Virus record (IMG/VR): IMGVR_UViG_3300050821_001527
Coordinates: 128,001-192,000 of that record
Length of the DNA stretch: 64,000 nucleotides
Source of the DNA: a virus
Taxonomy: Duplodnaviria; Caudoviricetes
Direction: 5' to 3' (one strand)
Each line of letters starts with the position of its first letter. Positions within the stretch are counted from its first letter, which is position 1. Under the pieces are notes generated by a model that ran no database searches, had not been told where the DNA came from, and worked only from the letters and a program-made list of their open reading frames with translations. Below are positions 1-61,887 of this stretch, piece after piece. Both the position numbers and the translations under genes were made by a program.

Positions 1-10
1 ATAATATGGC

Positions 11-1357
11 ATGAGTCCGTCGTCTAATGCCGTTCAGCCGCTCAAGGTAGTTTTTTGCACTACCTGCAAGGGCCGCGTAAGTCACATCAAGAAAACCCTC
101 CCCAAGAATTTGGCCGATAATCCCGGCGCGACCTTTATCCTTCTGGATTACAATGATAGTGGTGAATTAGCTTACCACGTCCGCAACGCCTGCCAGTCCG
201 AAATTAAAGAGGGCAGGCTGGTGTATTATCAATACCGAGACAATGTTCCCTTCCGCATGGCTCACGCCAAAAACATGGCGCACAGGCTCGGAATCATGGA
301 AGGCGCGGATATTCTGGTGAACTTGGACGCCGACAATCGCACGGGCGAAGGCTTCGCTGAATACATCGCGGAAAACTTCACCCGCACCCGCAACGACCCG
401 CAGGAAATTTTCATGTGGAGCAGGATGATTAAAGGGGTTCTGAAACGCGGAATCACCGGGCGCATTGTGGTCAGCAAAAACGCTTTTCTTCTCGCTGGCG
501 GATACGACGAACAGTATGCCACTTACTCCCCGGACGATAAAGATTTTGAAGCCCGCTTACGCAGACTGGGATTCTGTGCCCAAGAGATTGACAGCAAGTA
601 TCTGGACGCGGTATATCACGACGACAACGTAAGATTCAAGGAATACGCCCATTTGCTTGAGACGAGCGCAGCATACGAAACCCCCTGCATCTCTCCGCAC
701 AACCGCGTAGTCAATAACGGTAAATTTGGTTGCGGGGTTGTTTACAAGAATTTCGACGAGACTCCAATCACGCTTGCTCCGGTTCCTACCCGTATTTTTG
801 GCATCGGGATGCACAAGACCGCAACGACCTCTTTAAGCGAAGCCCTGACCATCCTTGGGCTAAAGTCGGGTCATTGGGAACACCCGCGCTGGGCTAGACA
901 AGTCTGGTCTGACATGAAGAATGTCGGTAGCTCTCCATCCGTGGAAAAGTATTATGCGCTTAGTGATTTGCCAATCGGAATTCTGTTTAGAGAATTGGAC
1001 GTGGCTTATCCGGGGTCGAAGTTCATCCTGACTGTCCGCGATGAATATGAATGGTTGAAGTCGGTTGAGAAACACTTTGATAGAAACATCAATCCCTACC
1101 GTAATTCATGGGACAACGATGCCTTTACCCACAGACTACACAACGAAATCTATGGACAGAGAAAATTCTCTTACCGTGTGTTCGTGGAGAGATACAGGAA
1201 GCACAACGCGGAAGTCTTGGAGTATTTCAAGGACAGACCGAATGATTTGCTGGTTATGAACGTTGACGATAAGACTGGATGGACAGAGCTATGCGCCTTT
1301 TTGGGCCAGCCAGTTCCTTCTATGAGCTATCCGAGAAAGTTCGTGACCAAGAAATAA
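11..1357 (+). CDS. Glycosyltransferase (GT2/GT7C-like) fused to C-terminal sulfotransferase domain
   Basis: N-half: LDADN DxD motif and GGYDEQY...DDKDFEARL; C-half: RIFGIGMHKTATTS PAPS-binding loop, KFILTVRD, GWTELCAFLG. Confidence 0.8.
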   Translation: MSPSSNAVQPLKVVFCTTCKGRVSHIKKTLPKNLADNPGATFILLDYNDSGELAYHVRNACQSEIKEGRLVYYQYRDNVPFRMAHAKNMAHRLGIMEGADILVNLDADNRTGEGFAEYIAENFTRTRNDPQEIFMWSRMIKGVLKRGITGRIVVSKNAFLLAGGYDEQYATYSPDDKDFEARLRRLGFCAQEIDSKYLDAVYHDDNVRFKEYAHLLETSAAYETPCISPHNRVVNNGKFGCGVVYKNFDETPITLAPVPTRIFGIGMHKTATTSLSEALTILGLKSGHWEHPRWARQVWSDMKNVGSSPSVEKYYALSDLPIGILFRELDVAYPGSKFILTVRDEYEWLKSVEKHFDRNINPYRNSWDNDAFTHRLHNEIYGQRKFSYRVFVERYRKHNAEVLEYFKDRPNDLLVMNVDDKTGWTELCAFLGQPVPSMSYPRKFVTKK

Positions 1358-1370
1358 ATTGAATTTTATT

Positions 1371-1460
1371 GGAAGATAAAGTAGTGAGGCAGCTACAACG
1401 CGGTGCTAACGCGATTGCCCCTCTAAAGGGGGTGGGGTTCGAGTCCTCTATCTTCCGCCA
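1371..1460 (+). tRNA. tRNA-Ser(GCT)
   Basis: GGAAGAT/ATCTTCC acceptor, GCT loop, long variable arm, TTCGAGT T-loop, G73, CCA. Confidence 0.92.
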
Positions 1461-1465
1461 AATTT

Positions 1466-1678
1466 ATGACCACTAACGAAAAAATACTAGCGACACTCGG
1501 CGAGATGCCAGCGGGCGCGAAAATCATGTATTTCGCATTTGACGGCGACACGGGAGAGCTTTTGTCTGCTGTATATTTCAACAAGACGTATTTCCTGAAT
1601 GGACGAGAGGACGTGGCCGAAAAAGCTGCCGAACGCTTGGGTTCGGAAGTCTGCTCCAAGATGCCAGAAGCTCCATAA
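1466..1678 (+). CDS. Hypothetical protein
   Basis: 70 aa ORF between tRNA and next promoter. Confidence 0.65.
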   Translation: MTTNEKILATLGEMPAGAKIMYFAFDGDTGELLSAVYFNKTYFLNGREDVAEKAAERLGSEVCSKMPEAP

Positions 1679-1683
1679 ATTTC

Positions 1684-1712
1684 TTGACTTCCCATGAAAA
1701 TTTTCATAGGAT
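1684..1712 (+). promoter_or_regulatory. sigma70-type promoter
   Basis: TTGACT-17-TAGGAT; GTG start 6 nt downstream. Confidence 0.75.
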
Positions 1713-1718
1713 AATGGG

Positions 1719-2432
1719 GTGTTAATCAAGACTTACAAGGCCAGCGATGAAGTAAAAATCGTTACGATAAACGTGACGAAATTTCCACTGGTCATAATCA
1801 CAGACAGCCATACGAACGTAGCCAACGTCCGTCAACTCAAGGAGTTGTATCCAGACAGTCCGTTCGTTAGTCTCGGAGACATTACTTTTCTCTTTGCCAA
1901 ACCGGGCGAAAAATACAACGCAAGGTCTGTCCAGTATTTCATTGACAACAAAATCCCCTGCCTCAAGGGAAACCATGAAGAACACCTTGTCTCCTGCGCG
2001 GCCTCTGATAACGGGGACAGTCTGGTGATTTTCAAGGCCATCCCGCGATTCGACGAGCATTCCAGCCTGTATGACAAATACGACCTGTCGCAGCAGCATA
2101 CGGATTATCTCAAGGGTCTGCCAATGGGCTTCAAGCTGGTTTTGCCGAATAAGGACGAGTATCTTTGCTTCCATAACCGTCCGTCCGATTTGTGGAGTTT
2201 CACAGAGGAAGCCTTTACACAAGAAGCCTTTGAAAAGACCTACCCGCTTTCGGAGCGAACCAAGTCGGTTATCATTGGCCACAATCATCGCCATTTTGTC
2301 AAGCAATATCCTTCCGGCAAGAGCCTGACGTGTATCGGCAGGTTGAGCGTTGACGGCGATTATGCGCTCTTGACCGAGCGAGGGATTGAGCAAAAAAGGC
2401 TCCCGAAGTCCTTGACTTACTTAGAAAAGTAA
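1719..2432 (+). CDS. Calcineurin-like metallophosphoesterase
   Basis: DSH, LGD, KGNHE, GHNH motifs. Confidence 0.85.
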   Translation: MLIKTYKASDEVKIVTINVTKFPLVIITDSHTNVANVRQLKELYPDSPFVSLGDITFLFAKPGEKYNARSVQYFIDNKIPCLKGNHEEHLVSCAASDNGDSLVIFKAIPRFDEHSSLYDKYDLSQQHTDYLKGLPMGFKLVLPNKDEYLCFHNRPSDLWSFTEEAFTQEAFEKTYPLSERTKSVIIGHNHRHFVKQYPSGKSLTCIGRLSVDGDYALLTERGIEQKRLPKSLTYLEK

Positions 2433-2440
2433 CGTAGTAT
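2412..2440 (+). promoter_or_regulatory. sigma70-type promoter for tRNA-like RNA
   Basis: TTGACT-17-TAGTAT, 8 nt before RNA 5' end. Confidence 0.7.
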
Positions 2441-2448
2441 CATTTTAC

Positions 2449-2526
2449 GCATCAGTATTGGCACTCTTTCCTAAAGAGGACGCGCATAATTGGACGATGT
2501 GGGTTCGACTCCCTCCTGATGCACCA
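2449..2526 (+). tRNA. Non-canonical tRNA-Arg(CCT)-like RNA lacking a D-arm
   Basis: GCATCAG/CTGATGC-A-CCA acceptor, CTCT-TTCCTAA-AGAG anticodon arm, TTCGACT T-loop; only 7 nt between acceptor and anticodon stems. Confidence 0.7.
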
Positions 2527-2532
2527 ATCTAC

Positions 2533-3006
2533 ATGAAAGAAACCATTTGCCCATCTTGCGAGAACGAGATAGACCCCGAGGTTTGTCATTGCGGAGACGC
2601 AATCAAGAATCACTCGTTTCTCAACAGTAACCACGGCCCAATCCCTATGGGATGCACCTGTGGATACGCAGAACCGCCGCCGAAGCCGCTCAAGATGTAT
2701 ATTTTGGTCAAGGCGTCCCTGCCGTCTCACAAGATGATTGTGGTCGCCCACGGGGTTCTAATGGCTCACAAAGCCTTCTCTCACCTGATGTTCGAGAACA
2801 CGAAGACCTACCACGAATGGTTGGAAAAATCCTTCCGCAAGGTGGTCTGCGAAGTGAGCGATGGAGATTTTGAAAGGTTCAAGCAGTTCGATGACAAGGT
2901 GATTGTCACCGAATCCGGCTTGGATAACATGGAAGTCGGGATGGTGTTTTGCCCCCGACAGGAATGGCCGAAAGCCTTCAAGTTCCTCTCCATGAGCAAA
3001 TACTGA
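2533..3006 (+). CDS. Peptidyl-tRNA hydrolase PTH2-like protein with N-terminal Cys/His-rich region
   Basis: KMYILVK...VAHG...SFRKVVCEV...VTESGL...FCPRQEWPKAFKFL resembles bacterial PTH2-like family; start moved to ATG 2533 after the tRNA. Confidence 0.7.
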   Translation: MKETICPSCENEIDPEVCHCGDAIKNHSFLNSNHGPIPMGCTCGYAEPPPKPLKMYILVKASLPSHKMIVVAHGVLMAHKAFSHLMFENTKTYHEWLEKSFRKVVCEVSDGDFERFKQFDDKVIVTESGLDNMEVGMVFCPRQEWPKAFKFLSMSKY

Positions 3007-3157
3007 TTTACGATAGCCGTCACACGCCCGCTGGCGGTCAATCCAGATTGCGGGCTTTAGAGTTCTCTGGAATTGTATGCCTTGTTCGTCTAAAAGTAAA
3101 GACACGTCATTGGTAATGATGAAACGACGGAGCGTTACCGTCACTCGGCTCCATTTT

Positions 3158-3364
3158 ATGAAACTCTTATCCCAAGAGGAAGCGGACGAGCAGAAAGCCC
3201 AAGAAAACTTTGAGAACCAAATCAGAGATACTTGCAGGGCGTTCTGTCGCGGTTTGCTAGACCGTCAGAAGCTCGCTGGTTATCACGGCTGGAATTTGAG
3301 CAACACAACACTCGAAACCGCTTACAGTATCGGCTGGAACTATGATTTCTCCAAGCCGTTATGA
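3158..3364 (+). CDS. Hypothetical protein
   Basis: ORF with ATGA overlap to next gene. Confidence 0.6.
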   Translation: MKLLSQEEADEQKAQENFENQIRDTCRAFCRGLLDRQKLAGYHGWNLSNTTLETAYSIGWNYDFSKPL

Positions 3365-3603
3365 AAAAACTTTGCCCGAAATGCAAGGTCGAACTGGAAT
3401 TAGTTCCGGCCTGCCCGACTGGTTGGAGCGACGAGCATCTAGCCTGTCCGAAATGCGACGGGACATTCAATCTCGGTGATGGGACGTATATGCTCATGCC
3501 CGATGACGAGTGGGAATGGCTTAAAAAAGTGAGGGCGCAATGGAAAGCTTCCGCCGAATTTGGTTGGAAGGGCACCTACGACGATGTTGATTACATCCGT
3601 TAA
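3361..3603 (+). CDS. Hypothetical Zn-ribbon protein
   Basis: CPKC ... CPKC. Confidence 0.65.
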   Translation: MKKLCPKCKVELELVPACPTGWSDEHLACPKCDGTFNLGDGTYMLMPDDEWEWLKKVRAQWKASAEFGWKGTYDDVDYIR

Positions 3604-3608
3604 AAGAC

Positions 3609-3637
3609 TTGACAATCCCTGAAAATACCCCTAATAT
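3609..3637 (+). promoter_or_regulatory. sigma70-type promoter
   Basis: TTGACA-17-TAATAT, ATG 6 nt downstream; first 18 nt identical to promoter at 11661. Confidence 0.85.
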
Positions 3638-3643
3638 CAGAAG

Positions 3644-4183
3644 ATGACAGGAATCCTTAGTAAAACTAAAGTCTATACCATCGGAGCGATGCAGTATGAG
3701 AATGGCGAAGGTTGGCGCAACAGGGTGAAGGAAGTCCTTTACCCAATGGGAGTCACGGTTTTCGACCCCTATCACAAGCCGTTCATCAACGAAGTCAAAG
3801 AGGACGAGGAAGCCCGCTCCTGCCTTAAAGAGTGGATGGAGAACGGCGAGTTCGACAAGGTGGCCGGAAGGATGAAGGCCGTTCGTCGTGATGATTTACG
3901 CTTGGTTGACTTGAGCGATTTTTTCATCGTTTACATCAACCCGACGATTGCCTCTTGGGGCAGCGCCGAGGAACTGTATTGGGCGAACCGCTTGAAGAAA
4001 CCCATCTTCATTTGCATCGAAGGCGGAAAGAAAAAGACGCCTTACTGGTTGATGGGCACAGTCCCGCACAAGTATATCTATGATGACTTGGAAGATATTT
4101 TGACAGTCCTCACCAAAATCAACGACGGTGAGAAGGTCATTGATAATGACAGATGGCGTTTGCTCAAGCCGGAATACCGATAA
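3644..4183 (+). CDS. Nucleoside 2-deoxyribosyltransferase-like protein
   Basis: VYTIGAM...WR...FDPY...DLRLVDLSD...SWGSAEE. Confidence 0.75.
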   Translation: MTGILSKTKVYTIGAMQYENGEGWRNRVKEVLYPMGVTVFDPYHKPFINEVKEDEEARSCLKEWMENGEFDKVAGRMKAVRRDDLRLVDLSDFFIVYINPTIASWGSAEELYWANRLKKPIFICIEGGKKKTPYWLMGTVPHKYIYDDLEDILTVLTKINDGEKVIDNDRWRLLKPEYR

Positions 4184-6645: not shown

Positions 6646-6861
6646 ATGCACCTATGGGAAATATATTGGTTGTGTGCCGCGCTCCTGACTTGGATGTTTG
6701 AGTTAAGGGCTTACCTTGCTGGTGAATACGGCCAGCAGAGGGATATGTTCAATATTGACTACGAGAAGGTAGGGATAATGGGTGTGTGCCTGTTCTTCTT
6801 TTGCTTGGTGTTTTGGTGGACTTTTTGGTTGGCGATGATTTTCGGTAGGATTAAGCGATGA
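6646..6861 (+). CDS. Hypothetical membrane protein
   Basis: Two hydrophobic segments. Confidence 0.6.
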   Translation: MHLWEIYWLCAALLTWMFELRAYLAGEYGQQRDMFNIDYEKVGIMGVCLFFFCLVFWWTFWLAMIFGRIKR

Positions 6862-9260: not shown

Positions 9261-9838
9261 TGAAAATCACCCCCAACAGTTTCTTCGACGGGGATTTCTA
9301 TAAGATAAATCTCAACGTTTATCTGTCGAACGGAGGCTTCAAGGATTGCCAGAAGCCCGAAGTCGCGCAAAGGCTGATAAACAAGTTGGGGCGTTTGACG
9401 TGGGGCGGATACGGGGAAAACCGCAAGGATATTTTTCAAAACAGTTATCTGGCCAAGACGGGGAACTTTTATCACTTGGGGGTTGACATTAACGTTCCAA
9501 AGGGAACGCCGGTTAAGGCTCCATTCGATTGCGAAGTCCTGCAAGCGTGGCCCGACCCCGATACCGACATTGGTTGGGGCGGAAGGGTCATCCTCAAGGC
9601 AAGCGATTGGCTACCGTTGCTTGTTCTCGGTCATTTGCACCCAAAGAAACTGCCCTTTTGCCGAGCCTACAAACAGGGAGAAGTTCTTGGGGAAGTCGGG
9701 ACATGGCCGCTCAACGGGAACACGTTTGAACATCTGCATGTCCAATGTATCAAGCATAATAAATTCGATAAATTTGACGGCTACGGAAGTCTTGCCCAGT
9801 TGAGGCACAACCCCGACCCGATGGAAGTAGATTTTTAG
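9260..9838 (+). CDS. M23 family peptidase
   Basis: HLGVD.NVPKGTPVKAP, GWGG, LGHL, HLH. Confidence 0.85.
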   Translation: MKITPNSFFDGDFYKINLNVYLSNGGFKDCQKPEVAQRLINKLGRLTWGGYGENRKDIFQNSYLAKTGNFYHLGVDINVPKGTPVKAPFDCEVLQAWPDPDTDIGWGGRVILKASDWLPLLVLGHLHPKKLPFCRAYKQGEVLGEVGTWPLNGNTFEHLHVQCIKHNKFDKFDGYGSLAQLRHNPDPMEVDF

Positions 9839-9840
9839 GC

Positions 9841-9869
9841 TTGACAACAACCGAATGATTTGATAGATT
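9841..9869 (+). promoter_or_regulatory. sigma70-type promoter for ncRNA
   Basis: TTGACA-17-TAGATT followed by non-coding structured region. Confidence 0.8.
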
Positions 9870-9872
9870 GAG

Positions 9873-10139
9873 GGTTCTGTTTTAAGAGCAAGTCCTACGC
9901 TGTGACGGGTGTAAGCCCCGGCATAGAGGACAAGTTCTCGGCTCTACAGCAGCCGTGGGAGGGAAAACCCGCTATTCACCACATGGTATGAGCAATCCTA
10001 AAGTCCCAAAGGCTAGTGCTGGCCGTAGTAAAGGGAAGGTTGGAGCAGCGACTATTAGCACGTCGCCACCGTAAGGTGAGAAAAATGTAGGACACCCGCA
10101 AGGGAACATAACCGAGGCCATTGCTCTTAAAACAGAATC
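9873..10139 (+). ncRNA. Unassigned ~265-nt structured ncRNA
   Basis: Perfect 17-bp terminal stem (9875-9891/10121-10137), GTCCTAC/GTAGGAC helix, GNRA hairpins, no ORF. Confidence 0.75.
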
Positions 10140-27296: not shown

Positions 27297-28466
27297 ATGA
27301 AAATCTACGCCGAAAACACTCGCGTCCCAATCAAGTCTTGGTGTGAAAACCCGGAAGCCGGGGCTATCAAGCAGGCCGAGAACATGGCCAACCTGCCATT
27401 CACTTTCAGACACGTCGCCCTCATGCCCGACACCCATCAAGGCTTTGGTATGCCTATCGGTGGAGTTCTGGCTACCGATAACGTCATCATTCCGAACGCT
27501 GTCGGAGTTGACATTGGGTGCGGTATGTGTTCCATCGAATCCAACATCCAAACTTGGGACAGGGAACTGTTGACGGAAGCCATCAAGGAAATCCGCTACA
27601 ACGTTCCTGTCGGATTCAGCCGCCATCTTACCGCGAAGCCTGTGGACAAGCTGCCCGCCAGCACGTCCCCGAACGCCTACTATGAGAAGTTCCTTGAGCC
27701 GTCCCTGTTCCAACTCGGAACCTTGGGCGGCGGGAATCACTTCATCGAATTACAGAAGAACCCGAACGGAAATCTGTGCGTGATGATTCACTCTGGTAGC
27801 CGCAACATCGGGAAGCAGGTTGCCGACTATTACAACAAGCTCGCCCTCGCTCTGAACCAGCGTTATTTCAGTCAGGTCACGAAGGAAACCGACTTGGCGT
27901 TCCTGCCGCTTGACTCTGCCGAGGGTCAGGCTTACTTGGCGGAAATGACTTACTGTGTCGCGTTTGCCTTGGCGAACCGCATGGAAATGATGAACGCTTG
28001 CCAGCAAGCCATCTACAAGGTTTTCAAGCCTTTGCAACAGGTCGAGTTCACGAACTTCATCAACATTCCGCACAATTATGCGAAGGTTGAAAAGCACTTC
28101 GGCAAGGAAGTCGTCGTCCACCGCAAGGGCGCGACGAATGCCAGCGAGGGCGTCATTGGGCTAATCCCCGGCTCGCAGGGCACCAAGAGCTACGTGGTGC
28201 GCGGCAAGGGTAATCGTGAGAGCTTCGAGAGTTGCTCCCACGGCGCAGGCCGCAAGATGGGCCGCATGGTCGCCAAACGCACTCTGAACATCGAAGACGA
28301 GCAACGCAAGCTGGACGAACTTGGAGTCATTCATGCCGTCCGCGCCAACTCTGACTTGGACGAGGCTCCGGGTTCCTATAAGGACATTGACGTGGTTATG
28401 AGCGAGCAAACCGACCTGATTGACGTTATCGAAGAACGCACTCCTTTGGGAGTCGTGAAGGGGTAA
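27297..28466 (+). CDS. rtcB: RNA ligase RtcB
   Basis: MPDTHQG, VGVDIGCG, GTLGGGNHF, HSGSR, HRKGA, SHGAGR, DEAPGSYK. Confidence 0.97.
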   Translation: MKIYAENTRVPIKSWCENPEAGAIKQAENMANLPFTFRHVALMPDTHQGFGMPIGGVLATDNVIIPNAVGVDIGCGMCSIESNIQTWDRELLTEAIKEIRYNVPVGFSRHLTAKPVDKLPASTSPNAYYEKFLEPSLFQLGTLGGGNHFIELQKNPNGNLCVMIHSGSRNIGKQVADYYNKLALALNQRYFSQVTKETDLAFLPLDSAEGQAYLAEMTYCVAFALANRMEMMNACQQAIYKVFKPLQQVEFTNFINIPHNYAKVEKHFGKEVVVHRKGATNASEGVIGLIPGSQGTKSYVVRGKGNRESFESCSHGAGRKMGRMVAKRTLNIEDEQRKLDELGVIHAVRANSDLDEAPGSYKDIDVVMSEQTDLIDVIEERTPLGVVKG

Positions 28467-57962: not shown

Positions 57963-58199
57963 ATGCAAGACGAACCAGTAATCGGGTGGCCTTTGGAAGA
58001 TGCCTTGAAATTGATTTCCGAGGCGTATGACATTTACGCTTGGCTGGACGTGAACAAAACTACCCATCGTTCCATTCGCCTGACGCCCGAAAACGCGAGA
58101 CAGTGGTGCATCGAAGTCGCCGGGGATGGATTCAAGAAAATCCCCCTGTTTCGCAACGGCACCACGATTTTTCTCGGCAGCGTCGAGGGAAGAATTTAA
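57963..58199 (+). CDS. Hypothetical protein
   Basis: ATG 6 nt after promoter 57928-57956. Confidence 0.7.
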   Translation: MQDEPVIGWPLEDALKLISEAYDIYAWLDVNKTTHRSIRLTPENARQWCIEVAGDGFKKIPLFRNGTTIFLGSVEGRI

Positions 58200-58202
58200 C
58201 CC

Positions 58203-58231
58203 TTGACAAGCGGGGAAAAGGTGTGTAGGGT
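58203..58231 (+). promoter_or_regulatory. sigma70-type promoter for non-coding region
   Basis: TTGACA-17-TAGGGT. Confidence 0.75.
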
Positions 58232-58273
58232 TAGAGTATAAGATTTTTCGTTCTTTTGACAATTATAGTCTCC

Positions 58274-58345
58274 GTGTCATTCGTCTAATGAAGGACAATC
58301 GGGCCTTGAACCCGAAAAGTATAGGACGCAATGCCTTTATGATAA
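58274..58345 (+). pseudogene. Degenerate tRNA-Gln(TTG)-like
   Basis: TGTCAT/ATGATA, GTCT..AGGAC D-arm, TCGGG-CCTTGAA-CCCGA; T-loop degenerate, no CCA. Confidence 0.55.
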
Positions 58346-58451
58346 ACGGCGGCAAGGGATTGAGTTTTGATTGTAAAACATGCCGTGCATGGCCTGTTTC
58401 TTAGTCCCGCGTTTTTTTCCTGCAAGAAACTCGTTCGGTGGGTATTGCGAT

Positions 58452-58533
58452 AGACTAAAAACCCTCCAAGGCGGCAAGTGCCCCGGTTCTGATACAGCCG
58501 AAAACTTGCATGTGGATTGCATCTACCAGTCCA
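58452..58533 (+). pseudogene. Degenerate tRNA-Ile(GAT)-like element
   Basis: CGGTT-CTGATAC-AGCCG arm, GTGG/CTAC hairpin, GACT/AGTC-CA ends. Confidence 0.35.
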
Positions 58534-58717
58534 GCTTTTAGACTTTTGTGCTACAACAATAATCCGTTAGGTTGCTGATTCGATAATATGCAAACAGTGT
58601 TAGCTCTTTGACTACAACAAAGACCGCCGTTTTATTCCTCCTAGAAAGGGTTTTGGGGCGCAATCCAAAATTACAATTTCAGTTGACAATGGTAGAAACA
58701 TTTGCTTAAATTAGACT

Positions 58718-59104
58718 ATGAAAATCAAAATCAATCGTGAATCTCTCGACGCTTTCGCTTCCCGCCTGTTCTATCTGGCGTGGCAGGCTTGTGGTGGCCC
58801 GCTTGGTATGGGTGTCTTTCAAGACCGTCCCGGTGCCTCCGAAAAGGACGTTTTCAACAATGTAATCACGGCGGGCGACTACGCCGGGGCGTTTGGTCGC
58901 GGCAAAAACGAGGTCTATGGCGACTACGTGTTTGGCCGAATGATGAAGTTCGGATTCACCATCTTGGACGATGGCGTTATCCAGTTCCGCAACACGGACT
59001 TCCGCCCCGATTATCAAGGGTTCTCGCGCAAGTATCCCACGATTGAAGCCTTGTTGAAGGCCACCGTGGAAAGCACCGGCATCCCATACGAAGTTGTGGA
59101 GTAA
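58718..59104 (+). CDS. Hypothetical protein
   Basis: 128 aa; promoter at 58683. Confidence 0.75.
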   Translation: MKIKINRESLDAFASRLFYLAWQACGGPLGMGVFQDRPGASEKDVFNNVITAGDYAGAFGRGKNEVYGDYVFGRMMKFGFTILDDGVIQFRNTDFRPDYQGFSRKYPTIEALLKATVESTGIPYEVVE

Positions 59105-59107
59105 TTT

Positions 59108-59236
59108 GGTCTGCCCCATACGCTCTGGTTAATGCGGACGGGTTAAGCGGGATGCTTCCTATCCAAAGACAGATGGCAGACAGGTTCCGCGTGTTCGCGG
59201 ACGCACCGCTAGATTGAACCAGCAAGACTAGCGGGG
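59108..59236 (+). ncRNA. Candidate structured RNA
   Basis: GTCTGCC/GGCAGAC, CCGC/GCGG, CCGCTAG/CTAGCGG stems; no ORF. Confidence 0.4.
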
Positions 59237-59240
59237 AATT

Positions 59241-59514
59241 TGACGTGTGGCGGAATGTAAAGACGCAAGGCGAAAACACGGTCTAGCTGAGTAAGTCGGG
59301 GAGAACGCTACCCGAAAGTAAACTACTGAAATGCGGCAAGTCCTGAATTGACAGGCAGCGCGAACTGACCAGAACCAACTGGTGATACCGTTGATGGCGT
59401 AAGTAGCTCCACCATCAATCTGTGTGTAAGACCAATGGCTGAAATATGCCGACAGAAAGCGCATAAGATTAGTGAGCCGATATATCCATGCAGGTTTAAA
59501 TCCTGCCACGTCAA
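59241..59514 (+). ncRNA. tRNA-shell RNA (Leu-type D-arm) with ~220-nt insert replacing the anticodon arm
   Basis: TGACGTG/CACGTCA acceptor, TGGCGGAATGTAAAGACGC D-arm, GCAGG-TTTAAAT-CCTGC T-arm. Confidence 0.7.
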
Positions 59515-59613
59515 AAAAATTCAATAAATATCAACGCTCAAGAGATTGACAACTACATCAAGGCGAATCACGCCGAAGCTTGGCCCGCAGTCAAGGCCGC
59601 TATCAGGCAGGCG

Positions 59614-61887
59614 ATGGCTTATGCCGTCGAGGTCAACAACCAGAAGCCAAGGACAGTGATGGTTGAACACAATGGTCTTTGGGCTGGACGTGTCGCCACT
59701 GATGTTGAGGGCGAACTGAGTGTTATCATCGCCAATGACAACGCTTTCGACTTGCTCCAAGGCCGTTCCCCGCTTCCTTACGTCAAAGACATTACCCCAA
59801 GCGAGGCGACCCGCAAAAGACTTGTTGAAATTGCCACCGCATGAACGCATTCGAGCAGGGCTATCAAGCTAACTTGCTCTCTGAAAACCCCTTTTGGAAG
59901 GACTATCCTAACCAGAAAACCCCGGACGACGAAAAGATTCGAGCGTGGCAATGGGTGGACGGTTACGTGCAGAAAATCATTGACAATCACTGACAACCTT
60001 GATAGTCTCATTCTATGCTTGACATTCCCAAAGGCACAAACATCTATCGTGCGGCTGAAATGGCCGTTGCGGAAGCCCGTCGTTTCCGTATGGAAGTGCA
60101 GTTCGAGTTTAACGAGATTTACTTGAGCGTTTCCCCGCTTTCCTGCGCCGACGATATTGCCGTCATCTACAGCCTGAAATCTGAAATCCGCCGTTTAAAG
60201 GCTTGACAAACACTGAAAGAGCCGTTAAGGTCTAATCATGTTCTTCCTCGAAAAATTCAAAATCCGCGAATGGGGACAGGTCATTCGTGACGGCAACGAC
60301 AAGTTGGTGTTGTTGTATGGCGGCGACCCTATCGCCTTCATCAATCACCGCTGTATGTATATCCGTCGTGCCCCGCTTGGTAAGAACGACGATTTGACCC
60401 AAACCATCGCCGATTTTTCCAAAATGTATAAGCATTGGATTGAGTCCACGGTTATGGAGGACTCGGCTATCACCAATCTGACAATCTCAAACTGATGAAA
60501 AACATCGTCAAAACCCTCGTCCAACTCGCCCTGCAAGCCGAACCCCTTCGTCGCCAGATTGATGAACAGGTCAAAAGGGTGGCTATCGAATGGTCGCAGG
60601 CTGATTCGTGGCGTTACCAGCATGGTGTTGACCGTCCCACCAAAACCGATTCGATTAACTCATGGAGCATTGACGGGGGCGGCATGGTGACTGTCCGCTG
60701 GTCGGAAACGTGGAACTACGGCGGCTATGCCGATGGTGACTTTGACTTTCCCGCGAAGTATATCTATGACGCTGACGCCCTCGTCCAGTGGACGCAGGAC
60801 TGTCGCGCCGTTCAGAAGTCCAATGAGGCCGACGAAGCCGCAAGGCAGCGTGAGATTGACAGGGCGCAGTTGGAACGTTTACAGGCGAAACTGGCACAGG
60901 CTTGATTATGGAAAAAGACCGCAAAGATTGGACGTTTGAGGAACTGAATTTGCATTGCTGCAAAATCATCTTGGAGCATCTGTTGAACGGCTCGTTTAAA
61001 ACGGGCGTCTATATGGCCCTCCAAGTCGCCGTCATGTGGCACGATGAACAGAAACCACAAACAGAGCTTGACAAGAGGCGAAACAGTCGTTAAGGTTATT
61101 CTATGCCGAATAATCCGTTAGTCAAAAGCCGCATTCTTTTAAATCCGATGAACGAAAAGTCTTTTTCTCACGTCTCCCGTTGGGGCACTGAGTTCCAATC
61201 GTTTCGTTGCGATTTTCGTAACGGAGTGGCGGTTAAGAATGCTCCGAAGGATAAGGCTAAACTTGCGAGCGACGTAGCTGAAATGATTGGTTATCATTCT
61301 GTCGCAATCTGGCCCAACTTGAACGGGTTTCAGGGCTATGACTGCATCCAGTGGGCGTTTATATGAAGTGGAGTAAGACCAGACCCAAGACGGTAGGCCA
61401 TTACTGGTTTCAGGATGGCCTGACGAACAACCCAAGGATACTTCGTGTGACCAAGGAAGATGGTAAACTTTGGGCACAGGACGAGGAAATCAGTTGCTCT
61501 TTCAAGCCGGGAAGTAAAATCACAGACCCGGATGACCTTGAGGAATGGGGCAGCGAACCCATCCCCGAACCGACGGAATAAAAATTCAATTTAATGAAAA
61601 TCCATCGCTACAGGAAAACCGTTTACCGCTCCTTCAAGGGCCGTATCATCTGGAAAGACTCGGAAGGGTATTTCATTGATGGCTGGCCTTTCGAGGGCGT
61701 TAATGGTCTGCGCTTTTCCAGTCTTAGGAAAGTGAGAGTGGCGATTAGATTGTGGATAACCTTCTGCATGAACGTCTTTAAGCTCAACCGCTACCTGAAC
61801 ATGCTAACGGTTGACCCGAGCAACTACAGTGGTTGTTATGGGAAATTCATTAGCATTGAGAAACTCGAAAAACTTGTCAAACGATGA
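59614..61887 (+). CDS. Run of short hypothetical ORFs (59614-59844, 60015-60206, 60238-60495, 60495-60905, 60908-61093, 61103-61366, 61363-61581, 61594-61887)
   Basis: Co-directional; promoters at 59980, 60203, 61068 each 6 nt before ATG. Confidence 0.6.

Follow-up and report, generated by a model that had tools for sequence, protein, structure and literature searches.

A tRNA-Leu-like shell encloses a conserved structured RNA domain in a soil phage genome

The locus and its tRNA-like shell

A locus for a 274-nucleotide (nt) RNA lies at positions 59241-59514, on the + strand, of the 64,000-nt stretch of DNA analysed here (the window), which corresponds to bases 128001-192000 of a 202,882-bp soil phage record in IMG/VR (completeness 91%). 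In this RNA, arms resembling those of a transfer RNA (tRNA) enclose about 223 nt. The RNA sits in a gap free of open reading frames (ORFs), behind a gene that stops at 59104; no open frame crosses the gap, and stops occur in all three + frames. Coordinates are those of the window unless the genome is named, and the features of the locus are collected in Table 1.

A sequence-only reading of this DNA had proposed a perfect 7-bp acceptor (TGACGTG/CACGTCA), a D-arm of Leu/Ser type and a T-arm (GCAGG-TTTAAAT-CCTGC). The acceptor and T-arm are present as described; the 3' acceptor strand ends at 59513 and position 59514 is the discriminator. For the D-arm the leucine half of the assignment stood, and comparison with the tRNA-Leu of related phages narrowed it to class-II tRNA-Leu. 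The D-arm has a 3-bp stem (TGGCGGAAT..AGACGC), and the positions of G18G19 read UA. Compared with the corresponding arm in the class-II tRNA-Leu(tag) of a related phage locus, L032 (TGGCGGAATTGGCAGACGC), its sequence (TGGCGGAATGTAAAGACGC) has four changes only, all in loop bases, and these remove G18G19. The Leu-type D-arm (3-bp stem, GGAAU..AGA loop) and A73 are shared with the tRNA-Leu(tag) genes that ARAGORN calls in L032 and L033, and A73 is present in both homologs described below. The other marks of a class-II tRNA-Leu, G18G19 and a long variable arm after an anticodon arm, were not found, and the D-loop reads GAAUGUAAAGA.

Measured against the general tRNA family (RF00005), the RNA has the 7-bp acceptor stacked on a 5-bp T-stem with a 7-nt loop, together with a D-arm, and the acceptor covaries. 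The anticodon arm of the family (5-bp stem, 7-nt loop) is absent both after the D-arm and before the T-arm, in this copy and in the homolog in contig L051, so that the RNA cannot read codons. A short helix (H3) stands where an anticodon arm would begin; it has no 5-bp stem, 7-nt loop or U33, and its loop is 3 nt shorter in a relative from a third lineage (X3, below). This copy also encodes no CCA, A-rich sequence following A59514. The absence of an anticodon loop and of an encoded CCA, as claimed from the letters, was thus borne out.

ARAGORN made no call at the locus, even with relaxed thresholds and introns of up to 400 nt, and RF00005 gave no match there. Rfam as a whole gave no match at the locus at gathering thresholds or at E<=10, and a control region confirmed that the tool works. 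This negative rests on the permissive E<=10 run because the gathering run on the 64 kb missed a true tRNA of 35.8 bits (cut-off 29) at 3079-3150 that a run on positions 1-4000 found. Two further points of the sequence-only reading, that no Rfam family is recognisable and that a group I core is lacking, agree with these searches: cmscan returned nothing at E<=10, and RF00028 matched neither the locus nor the genome at E<=10, with positive controls. Literature searches found no published description of such an RNA.

The shell by itself is not significant. A scan for a perfect 7-bp acceptor with a 5/7 T-arm (<=500 nt) found five in the genome, of which about three lie in coding sequence and are probably due to chance, and a single-sequence fold of the 274-nt RNA had a minimum free energy z-score of only -1.15 against shuffles. 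The reality of the element is settled, at the level of sequence comparison, by its homologs and not by shell or fold energy.

Homologs, covariation and transcripts

In a second soil metatranscriptome, an RNA contig (X3) that represents a third lineage matched positions 59261-59328 at about 92%. Its flanks are diverged yet recognisably homologous, with TGGCGGAAT and AGTCCTGAAT..ACAGG kept. A two-anchor pattern built from words kept in X3 located two metagenome contigs, L051 and L052, with a full-length homolog at 80% identity over 275 nt. L051 is phage-like, and no other likeness between its 5.3 kb and this genome was detected, even by tblastx. The similarity runs from 3 nt before the acceptor to the discriminator, so the conserved unit is exactly the tRNA-bounded RNA; no similarity further upstream is visible because both contigs begin at -3. 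These independent contigs share that edge (5295-5297 in L051, 1-3 in L052), which may reflect either the physical end of a genome or a break in assembly at the border of a shared module.

The homolog in L051/L052 has the acceptor GAGCGCG/CGCGCTC, in which four of the seven pairs are changed on both sides and all are still paired. It also has a canonical TTCAAAT T-loop and an ACCA encoded after CGCGCTC, features that fit tRNA-type processing. RNAalifold on the alignment gave 68 pairs in 13 helices, with 97.8% of cells paired. Compensatory changes affect 14 of the 68 pairs, compared with 0-3 in slid controls, and none of 500 shuffles reached the observed values. Covariation was seen in the acceptor and in six further helices, and 38 of the 60 differences within the RNA fall in helix columns. 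As judged from this alignment, the acceptor, D and T arms and at least nine interior helices are shown to be kept by selection.

All four interior hairpins listed in the sequence-only reading (CGGG/CCCG, CCAG/CTGG, TTGATGG/CCATCAA and GGC/GCC) exist, and three of the four have compensatory changes in L051/L052. In H7, which closes the core over a long range, a C-to-A change compensates a G-to-T change in the comparison with L051. The most conserved stretch, 59424-59475, is mostly unpaired and is a candidate functional site. The central proposal of that reading, a structured, non-decoding interior between tRNA ends, fared well: the interior is conserved with covariation and is represented in metatranscriptome contigs, and no known intron-containing tRNA or other family was assigned to it. 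Taken as a whole, that reading is partly supported: the role it offered, a processing and stability scaffold or a decoy, would be a proposal, and the one contig that bears on RNA ends (X2, below) does not show the T-arm in the abundant RNA.

The RNA behaves, by its distribution among contigs, as a mobile module in otherwise unrelated phage genomes. Its Leu-type D-arm at 59250-66 occurs once in the genome and the phage's own tRNA-Leu genes look different, and a horizontally moving module fits both facts. A covariance model built from the homolog alignment (R1) found no paralog of the 274-nt RNA in this genome; it matched ordinary tRNA-Leu genes in related phage loci via the shell alone. No homolog was found in the phage BLAST collection, no exact 24-mer of the RNA in IMG/VR, and no match to further patterns in IMG/VR and genome contigs; the three IMG/VR matches to one pattern were rejected as chance occurrences in coding DNA. 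The neighbour proteins have no relatives in IMG/VR. The terminase led to relatives consisting of short fragments that lie away from the RNA locus, and those reached through a HATPase protein have neither the RNA nor its neighbour genes. Homologs of the upstream 128-amino-acid protein and of the downstream small protein lie in contigs without the RNA, which is therefore not tied to either neighbour gene; blastn and nhmmer searches with the RNA found no match in these neighbour-homolog loci.

The locus is present in RNA libraries, namely a soil metatranscriptome (X2) and, as the third lineage, the separate RNA run that yielded X3. One X2 contig covers 58700-59476 at a k-mer depth of 31. Another covers 58001-58655 at a depth of 88.7, the highest in the 20 kb examined, in a region with an ORF-free block (58203-58680); the remaining bins of the 20 kb have depths of <=6. 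The first contig ends with 23 nt of Illumina adapter, whose first two bases (AG) coincide with 59475-76, so that the insert most likely ends at G59474. This base is at the 3' edge of the near-invariant block, 15 nt before the T-arm. The adapter orientation at the contig end, if the library is of the deoxyuridine triphosphate type, would presumably mark a 3' end of + strand RNA. Contigs of this kind cannot prove RNA ends, strand or level, and the gap in X2 cover from 59477 to 60008 was not counted as evidence.

Table 1. Features in and around the 274-nt RNA locus (window coordinates; H, helix).
Feature	Position	Strand	Remarks
Upstream ORF-free spacer	59105-59240	+	Outside the conserved module except for the last 3 nt (TTT); stops in all + frames
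Acceptor, 5' strand, TGACGTG	59241-59247	+	Perfect 7-bp pairing with 59507-59513; GAGCGCG/CGCGCTC in L051/L052
U8-G9 linker (TG) and tRNA-Leu-type D-arm, GCG-GAATGTAAAGA-CGC	59248-59266 (D-arm 59250-66)	+	Identical in L051/L052
H3, 3-bp helix GGC/GCT with 14-nt loop, where an anticodon arm would begin	59269-59288	+	RNAalifold: one pair changed on both sides, one pair on one side
H4 hairpin, TCGGGGAG/CTACCCGA (CGGG/CCCG within)	59296-59315	+	One compensatory pair (G-C to A-U)
H5 hairpin	59322-59341	+	One compensatory pair and one single-sided change
H6 hairpin, CCTG-AATTGA-CAGG	59342-59355	+	Stem invariant; loop AATCAA in L051 and the X3 RNA contig
Multi-helix core domain	59358-59462	+	Closed by long-range H7 (59358-61/59459-62) and H8 (59365-67/59453-55)
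H9 within core (CCAG/CTGG)	59368-59383	+	One compensatory pair
H10/H11 arm within core, 12 pairs (TTGATGG/CCATCAA within 59390-59419)	59385-59427	+	H11: five compensatory pairs
H12 within core (GGC/GCC)	59437-59450	+	
Near-invariant 52-nt block, mostly unpaired	59424-59475	+	Two differences from L051, one of them compensated in H7; about 20% divergence overall
Variable single-stranded linker before T-arm	59476-59489	+	Diverged; 3 nt shorter in L051
T-arm, GCAGG-TTTAAAT-CCTGC (5 bp/7 nt)	59490-59506	+	Flush against the 3' acceptor strand; stem identical in the L051/L052 homolog
Acceptor, 3' strand, CACGTCA, and discriminator A59514	59507-59514	+	3' strand ends at 59513; similarity to the L051/L052 homolog stops here
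Downstream ORF-free spacer	59515-59658	+	Ends before the probable ATG at 59659

Genomic setting and comparable RNAs

The genes near the RNA are small, all on the + strand and mostly without an assigned function. The downstream gene, probably of only 61 amino acids, most likely starts at ATG 59659 and not at 59530 or 59614, because the gene-caller product (P0121) and its sole homolog (P0122, MKIMIEHNGLW...) align only from 59659 on. In the region 59530-59844, the open frame upstream of this codon has no ATG, GTG or TTG before 59614, and in the homolog the MKIMIEHNGLW start lies directly behind a TTGACA promoter-like box. No convincing promoter or terminator was found at the 274-nt RNA itself. 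Boxes of the form TTGACA-17/18-TAnnnT stand a few bases before ATG or RNA starts at 58683-58718 and 45389-45423 and at 257-290 of the related contig L047, and their positions suggest leaderless transcripts in this phage group. In four relatives, a PolyA_pol-family (CCA-enzyme-like) gene directly follows the homolog of the upstream 128-amino-acid gene (L039 3427-4122, L043 3231-3926, L044 1988-2683, L045 1497-2192) and occupies the position held here by the 274-nt RNA.

The phage genome encodes about 27 tRNA genes at 116.6-131 kb (ARAGORN/RF00005), a transfer-messenger RNA (tmRNA) at 108618-109001 (ARAGORN) and a PolyA_pol-family (CCA-enzyme-like) nucleotidyltransferase at 9726-10106; an RtcB RNA ligase gene is at window 27297-28466. 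A Ro60/TROVE gene (PF05731) was not found in the genome. Several tRNAs of the 116.6-131 kb cluster have non-canonical T-loops (AGCGTTA, TGCGACT) and D-loops without GG, yet good RF00005 scores. Five bases after the tmRNA, at genome 109007-109122 (L009), lies a 112-nt tRNA-ended RNA with the acceptor GGGGCTA/TAGCTCC (G3-U70), a TTTAACT T-loop and an encoded ACCA, in which about 70 nt stand in for the D and anticodon arms. Large inserts also occur in tRNA-like genes at window 46951-47153 and at genome 125416-125563, a 148-nt tRNA-ended element, and 126421-126556. One gene among the large-insert genes has an intact anticodon arm and a 128-nt insert in the variable region, with an RF00005 score of 16.6 bits on its 5' part, and one further such gene is called tRNA-Ser(cga) with a 62-nt insert by ARAGORN.

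Class-II tRNA-Leu (RF00005) is among the closest known designs, sharing the 7-bp acceptor, U8-G9, the 3-bp D-stem with 11-nt loop (GCGGAAU....AGACGC), the 5-bp T-stem with 7-nt loop, the discriminator A and, in L051/L052, the CCA. It differs in that here about 223 nt replace the anticodon and variable arms and G18G19 is lost. With tmRNA (SsrA), which this phage also encodes, the RNA has in common a tRNA-like acceptor/T-arm domain and the replacement of the anticodon arm by a large multi-helix RNA. Unlike tmRNA it has a real D-stem, an identity that looks leucine-like and not alanine-like, no G3-U70 and no conserved tag ORF, and neither ARAGORN nor the Rfam tmRNA models matched the locus. The identification as tmRNA was rejected: pair 3 is A-U here and G-C in L051, and no tag frame is common to the homologs because indels of 1, 1 and 2 nt separate them and the only shared ORF leaves the RNA. 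A decoding tRNA was likewise rejected, the anticodon arm being absent.

Two stable phage RNAs of T4, rnaC and rnaD (stable RNAs C and D; species 1 and 2 RNA), are small, are encoded in a tRNA cluster and have no assigned function. T4 rnaC ends in a canonical T-arm (CCGGG-TTCGAAT-CCCGG) on an acceptor-like stem (CGGAACG/CGTTTCG), and rnaD ends in CACCA. They differ in being 139 and 119 nt long, in having no Leu-type D-arm and in having no interior sequence similarity, so that the relation is one of architecture only; R1 gave a weak shell match to rnaC (E 0.09). An unannotated element of Bacillus phage SPP1 (X97918, about 6647-6760) is closer in plan and reads AACACGG-TG-GCGGAATAGGTAGACGC-(about 56 nt)-GCTAGG-TGCAAAT-CCTAGC-CCGTGTT. 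It has in the same order a 7-bp acceptor, TG, a D-arm, an insert in place of the anticodon arm and a T-arm; in contrast to the present RNA, its insert is only about 56 nt long and unrelated in sequence, its T-stem has 6 bp and it keeps G18G19. The element lies between genes 9 and 11 and overlaps 'gene 10', a doubtful ORF on the minus strand for which the record notes a conflict with the translation. It was found by a D-arm pattern; the strict shell scan of SPP1 missed it because of the 6-bp T-stem and the TGCAAAT loop, and R1 found nothing in SPP1. The architecture is recurrent in phages, given its occurrence in SPP1 and, more loosely, in T4 rnaC, and the 274-nt RNA stands out by the size of its insert and by a core conserved across unrelated phages.

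Group I intron-bearing tRNA-Leu(UAA) genes likewise have 200-250 nt of structured RNA set into the body of a tRNA-Leu. Here, by contrast, no anticodon stem flanks the insert, RF00028 does not match and the RNA contigs contain no spliced joint. An intron-bearing tRNA was rejected on these grounds, and in neither homolog do the flanks of the insert contain two complementary halves of an anticodon stem. A protein-gene intron was rejected as well: only three codons follow a stop when the flanks are joined, and the start of the downstream gene lies at about 59659. A likeness to ribonuclease P (RNase P) RNA through the motifs AGUCC and ACAGAA was rejected since no P4 pairing is possible and Rfam gave no match. 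The bacterial Y RNA YrlA is non-coding, has a tRNA-mimicking domain, and is sometimes phage-borne and linked to RtcB operons (PMC4201824). In YrlA, however, the tRNA-like portion lies inside the molecule, and it is the stem for Ro60 binding that the termini make up (PMC4201824); here the ends form the acceptor stem, a Ro60 gene is absent from the phage genome and Rfam gave no match, and YrlA was rejected.

Possible functions of the RNA

The best explanation, which we hold with moderate confidence, is that the locus is probably a free-standing phage gene for a stable, non-decoding, tRNA-Leu-derived structured RNA that is matured by tRNA-processing enzymes and whose core binds a partner. The RNA would be co-transcribed with the upstream gene, and its tRNA-like top half would be recognised by RNase P, with a cut at 59240/59241. 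Trimming of the 3' end and addition of CCA, by the host enzyme or by the phage's own PolyA_pol-family enzyme, would follow, and this tRNA-type maturation would release and stabilise the RNA. The core of about 223 nt, which takes the place of the anticodon and variable arms, would be the working part, above all the block at 59424-59475, and would bind a putative protein or RNA partner. That the phage is equipped with about 27 tRNAs, a tmRNA, a PolyA_pol-family enzyme and RtcB counts in favour of this explanation, and the ACCA of L051/L052 gives indirect support to the RNA being a substrate of RNase P and the CCA enzyme.

Several observations weigh on the other side. This copy has no encoded CCA, has U in place of C56 and is without G18G19, so that the tRNA elbow may fail to take its canonical form; a pair between U56 and the A at position 19 is conceivable. 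The X2 and X3 contigs both cross the 5' boundary, that is, the predicted RNase P site. The X2 contig end hints that the abundant species may be without the T-arm and the 3' acceptor strand, or may be nicked there; since contigs cannot prove ends and both cross the RNase P site, the stop at G59474 is taken as a hint only. With two independent full-length sequences the covariation amounts to a single comparison, which is nevertheless clean. A search of the phage genome for pairing targets found complements to the conserved loops at chance level only.

Among the alternatives, an unlikely one is that the RNA acts as a decoy or sponge against host defence or RNA enzymes that recognise the tRNA top half or 3' end, with the core adding only stability or a second binding site. 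Candidate targets would be nucleotidyltransferase or pyrophosphokinase toxins, acceptor-stem nucleases, RNase P or the CCA enzyme. A decoy would account for three observations: selection maintains the shell although the decoding part has been lost, the module travels among unrelated phages in the manner of accessory counter-defence genes, and the phage invests in RNA repair (RtcB). A decoy would have no need, however, of a 223-nt core with an invariant 52-nt block; without anticodon-loop features it cannot bait anticodon nucleases, and none of the results points to a particular defence system or toxin. We also consider it quite unlikely that the RNA mimics a tRNA to the point of being charged, in which case it would carry a CCA tail and an amino acid, the most plausible enzyme being leucyl-tRNA synthetase (LeuRS), which ignores the anticodon. 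Such a mimic would act via its aminoacyl end: on the ribosome in the way of tmRNA, by giving its amino acid to a non-ribosomal transferase, or by tying up LeuRS or EF-Tu. Bacterial LeuRS identity lies in A73 and D/T tertiary elements and not in the anticodon. The shell is of tRNA-Leu type with A73, and the L051/L052 homolog has ACCA and a canonical T-loop. The D-arm is, moreover, fully conserved though RNase P processing alone would not require it, and a tmRNA and a CCA-enzyme-like gene are part of the phage's own gene set. Placement of G18G19 matters for the LeuRS of Escherichia coli, however, and UA replaces these bases in all copies; this copy has no CCA and has U56, G3-U70 is lacking, no tag frame with a stop is conserved, and the RNA contig stops before the T-arm.

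That the shell serves processing alone is distinctly improbable. The core would then be a ribozyme or be cut out, with cleavage after G59474 freeing 59241-59474, possibly followed by re-ligation or circularisation by RtcB. The direct junction of the X2 contig end (59474-59476) to the adapter, exactly at the 3' edge of the invariant block, and the presence of RtcB speak for it; against this, the argument depends on one contig end, and contigs do not suffice to fix the ends of an RNA; models of known self-cleaving ribozymes and of introns give no match, and the RNA contigs contain no joints. It is highly improbable that the 3' third encodes a small protein, for which an ORF from ATG 59436 (MAEICRQKAHKIS...) of 30 amino acids here and 64 in L051 would be available. 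Four substitutions relative to L051 fall at third codon positions and the linker indel is 3 nt and in frame. RNA pairing (H7 compensation, T-loop, acceptor) accounts for these substitutions, almost no synonymous changes occur in 13 codons despite 20% overall divergence, C-termini and lengths differ, and no promoter or start context is conserved before the ORF. We give the protein reading low weight because pairing accounts for the changes and the ORF runs through the T-arm and out of the conserved module. There is equally little to commend the view that a tRNA-Leu gene with an intron has degenerated here into a remnant without function. Genes for tRNA-Leu(UAA) are known to carry group I introns, the shell is of tRNA-Leu type and this copy has lost CCA and C56; set against this, neither side of the insert has an anticodon stem and RF00028 does not match. 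The strong compensatory evolution and the invariant block mean ongoing selection, and the covariation largely refutes a remnant.

To return to the partner-binding, tRNA-matured RNA that we favour, a more far-reaching version of it is speculative and on balance rather unlikely. The leucine tRNA top half may serve as a chassis that recruits tRNA maturation, and possibly the charging/EF-Tu machinery, to display exchangeable RNA cargos, with the 223-nt core as an effector that captures or reprograms a host translation, RNA-processing or defence factor. If true, this would be a second tmRNA-like class of tRNA-shaped effector RNA.

For a long time tmRNA has stood as the chief case of a tRNA in which a functional RNA domain takes the place of the decoding arm. 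The present locus is another such design, built on tRNA-Leu, with a large compensatorily conserved core, expressed in soil and common to otherwise unrelated phages. Taken with the SPP1 element and T4 rnaC/rnaD, the locus suggests that phages have repeatedly made use of non-decoding RNAs in the shape of a tRNA. Neither tRNA finders nor Rfam pick up such genes, which is a warning for annotators, and SPP1, as a model phage, offers genetics for the class.

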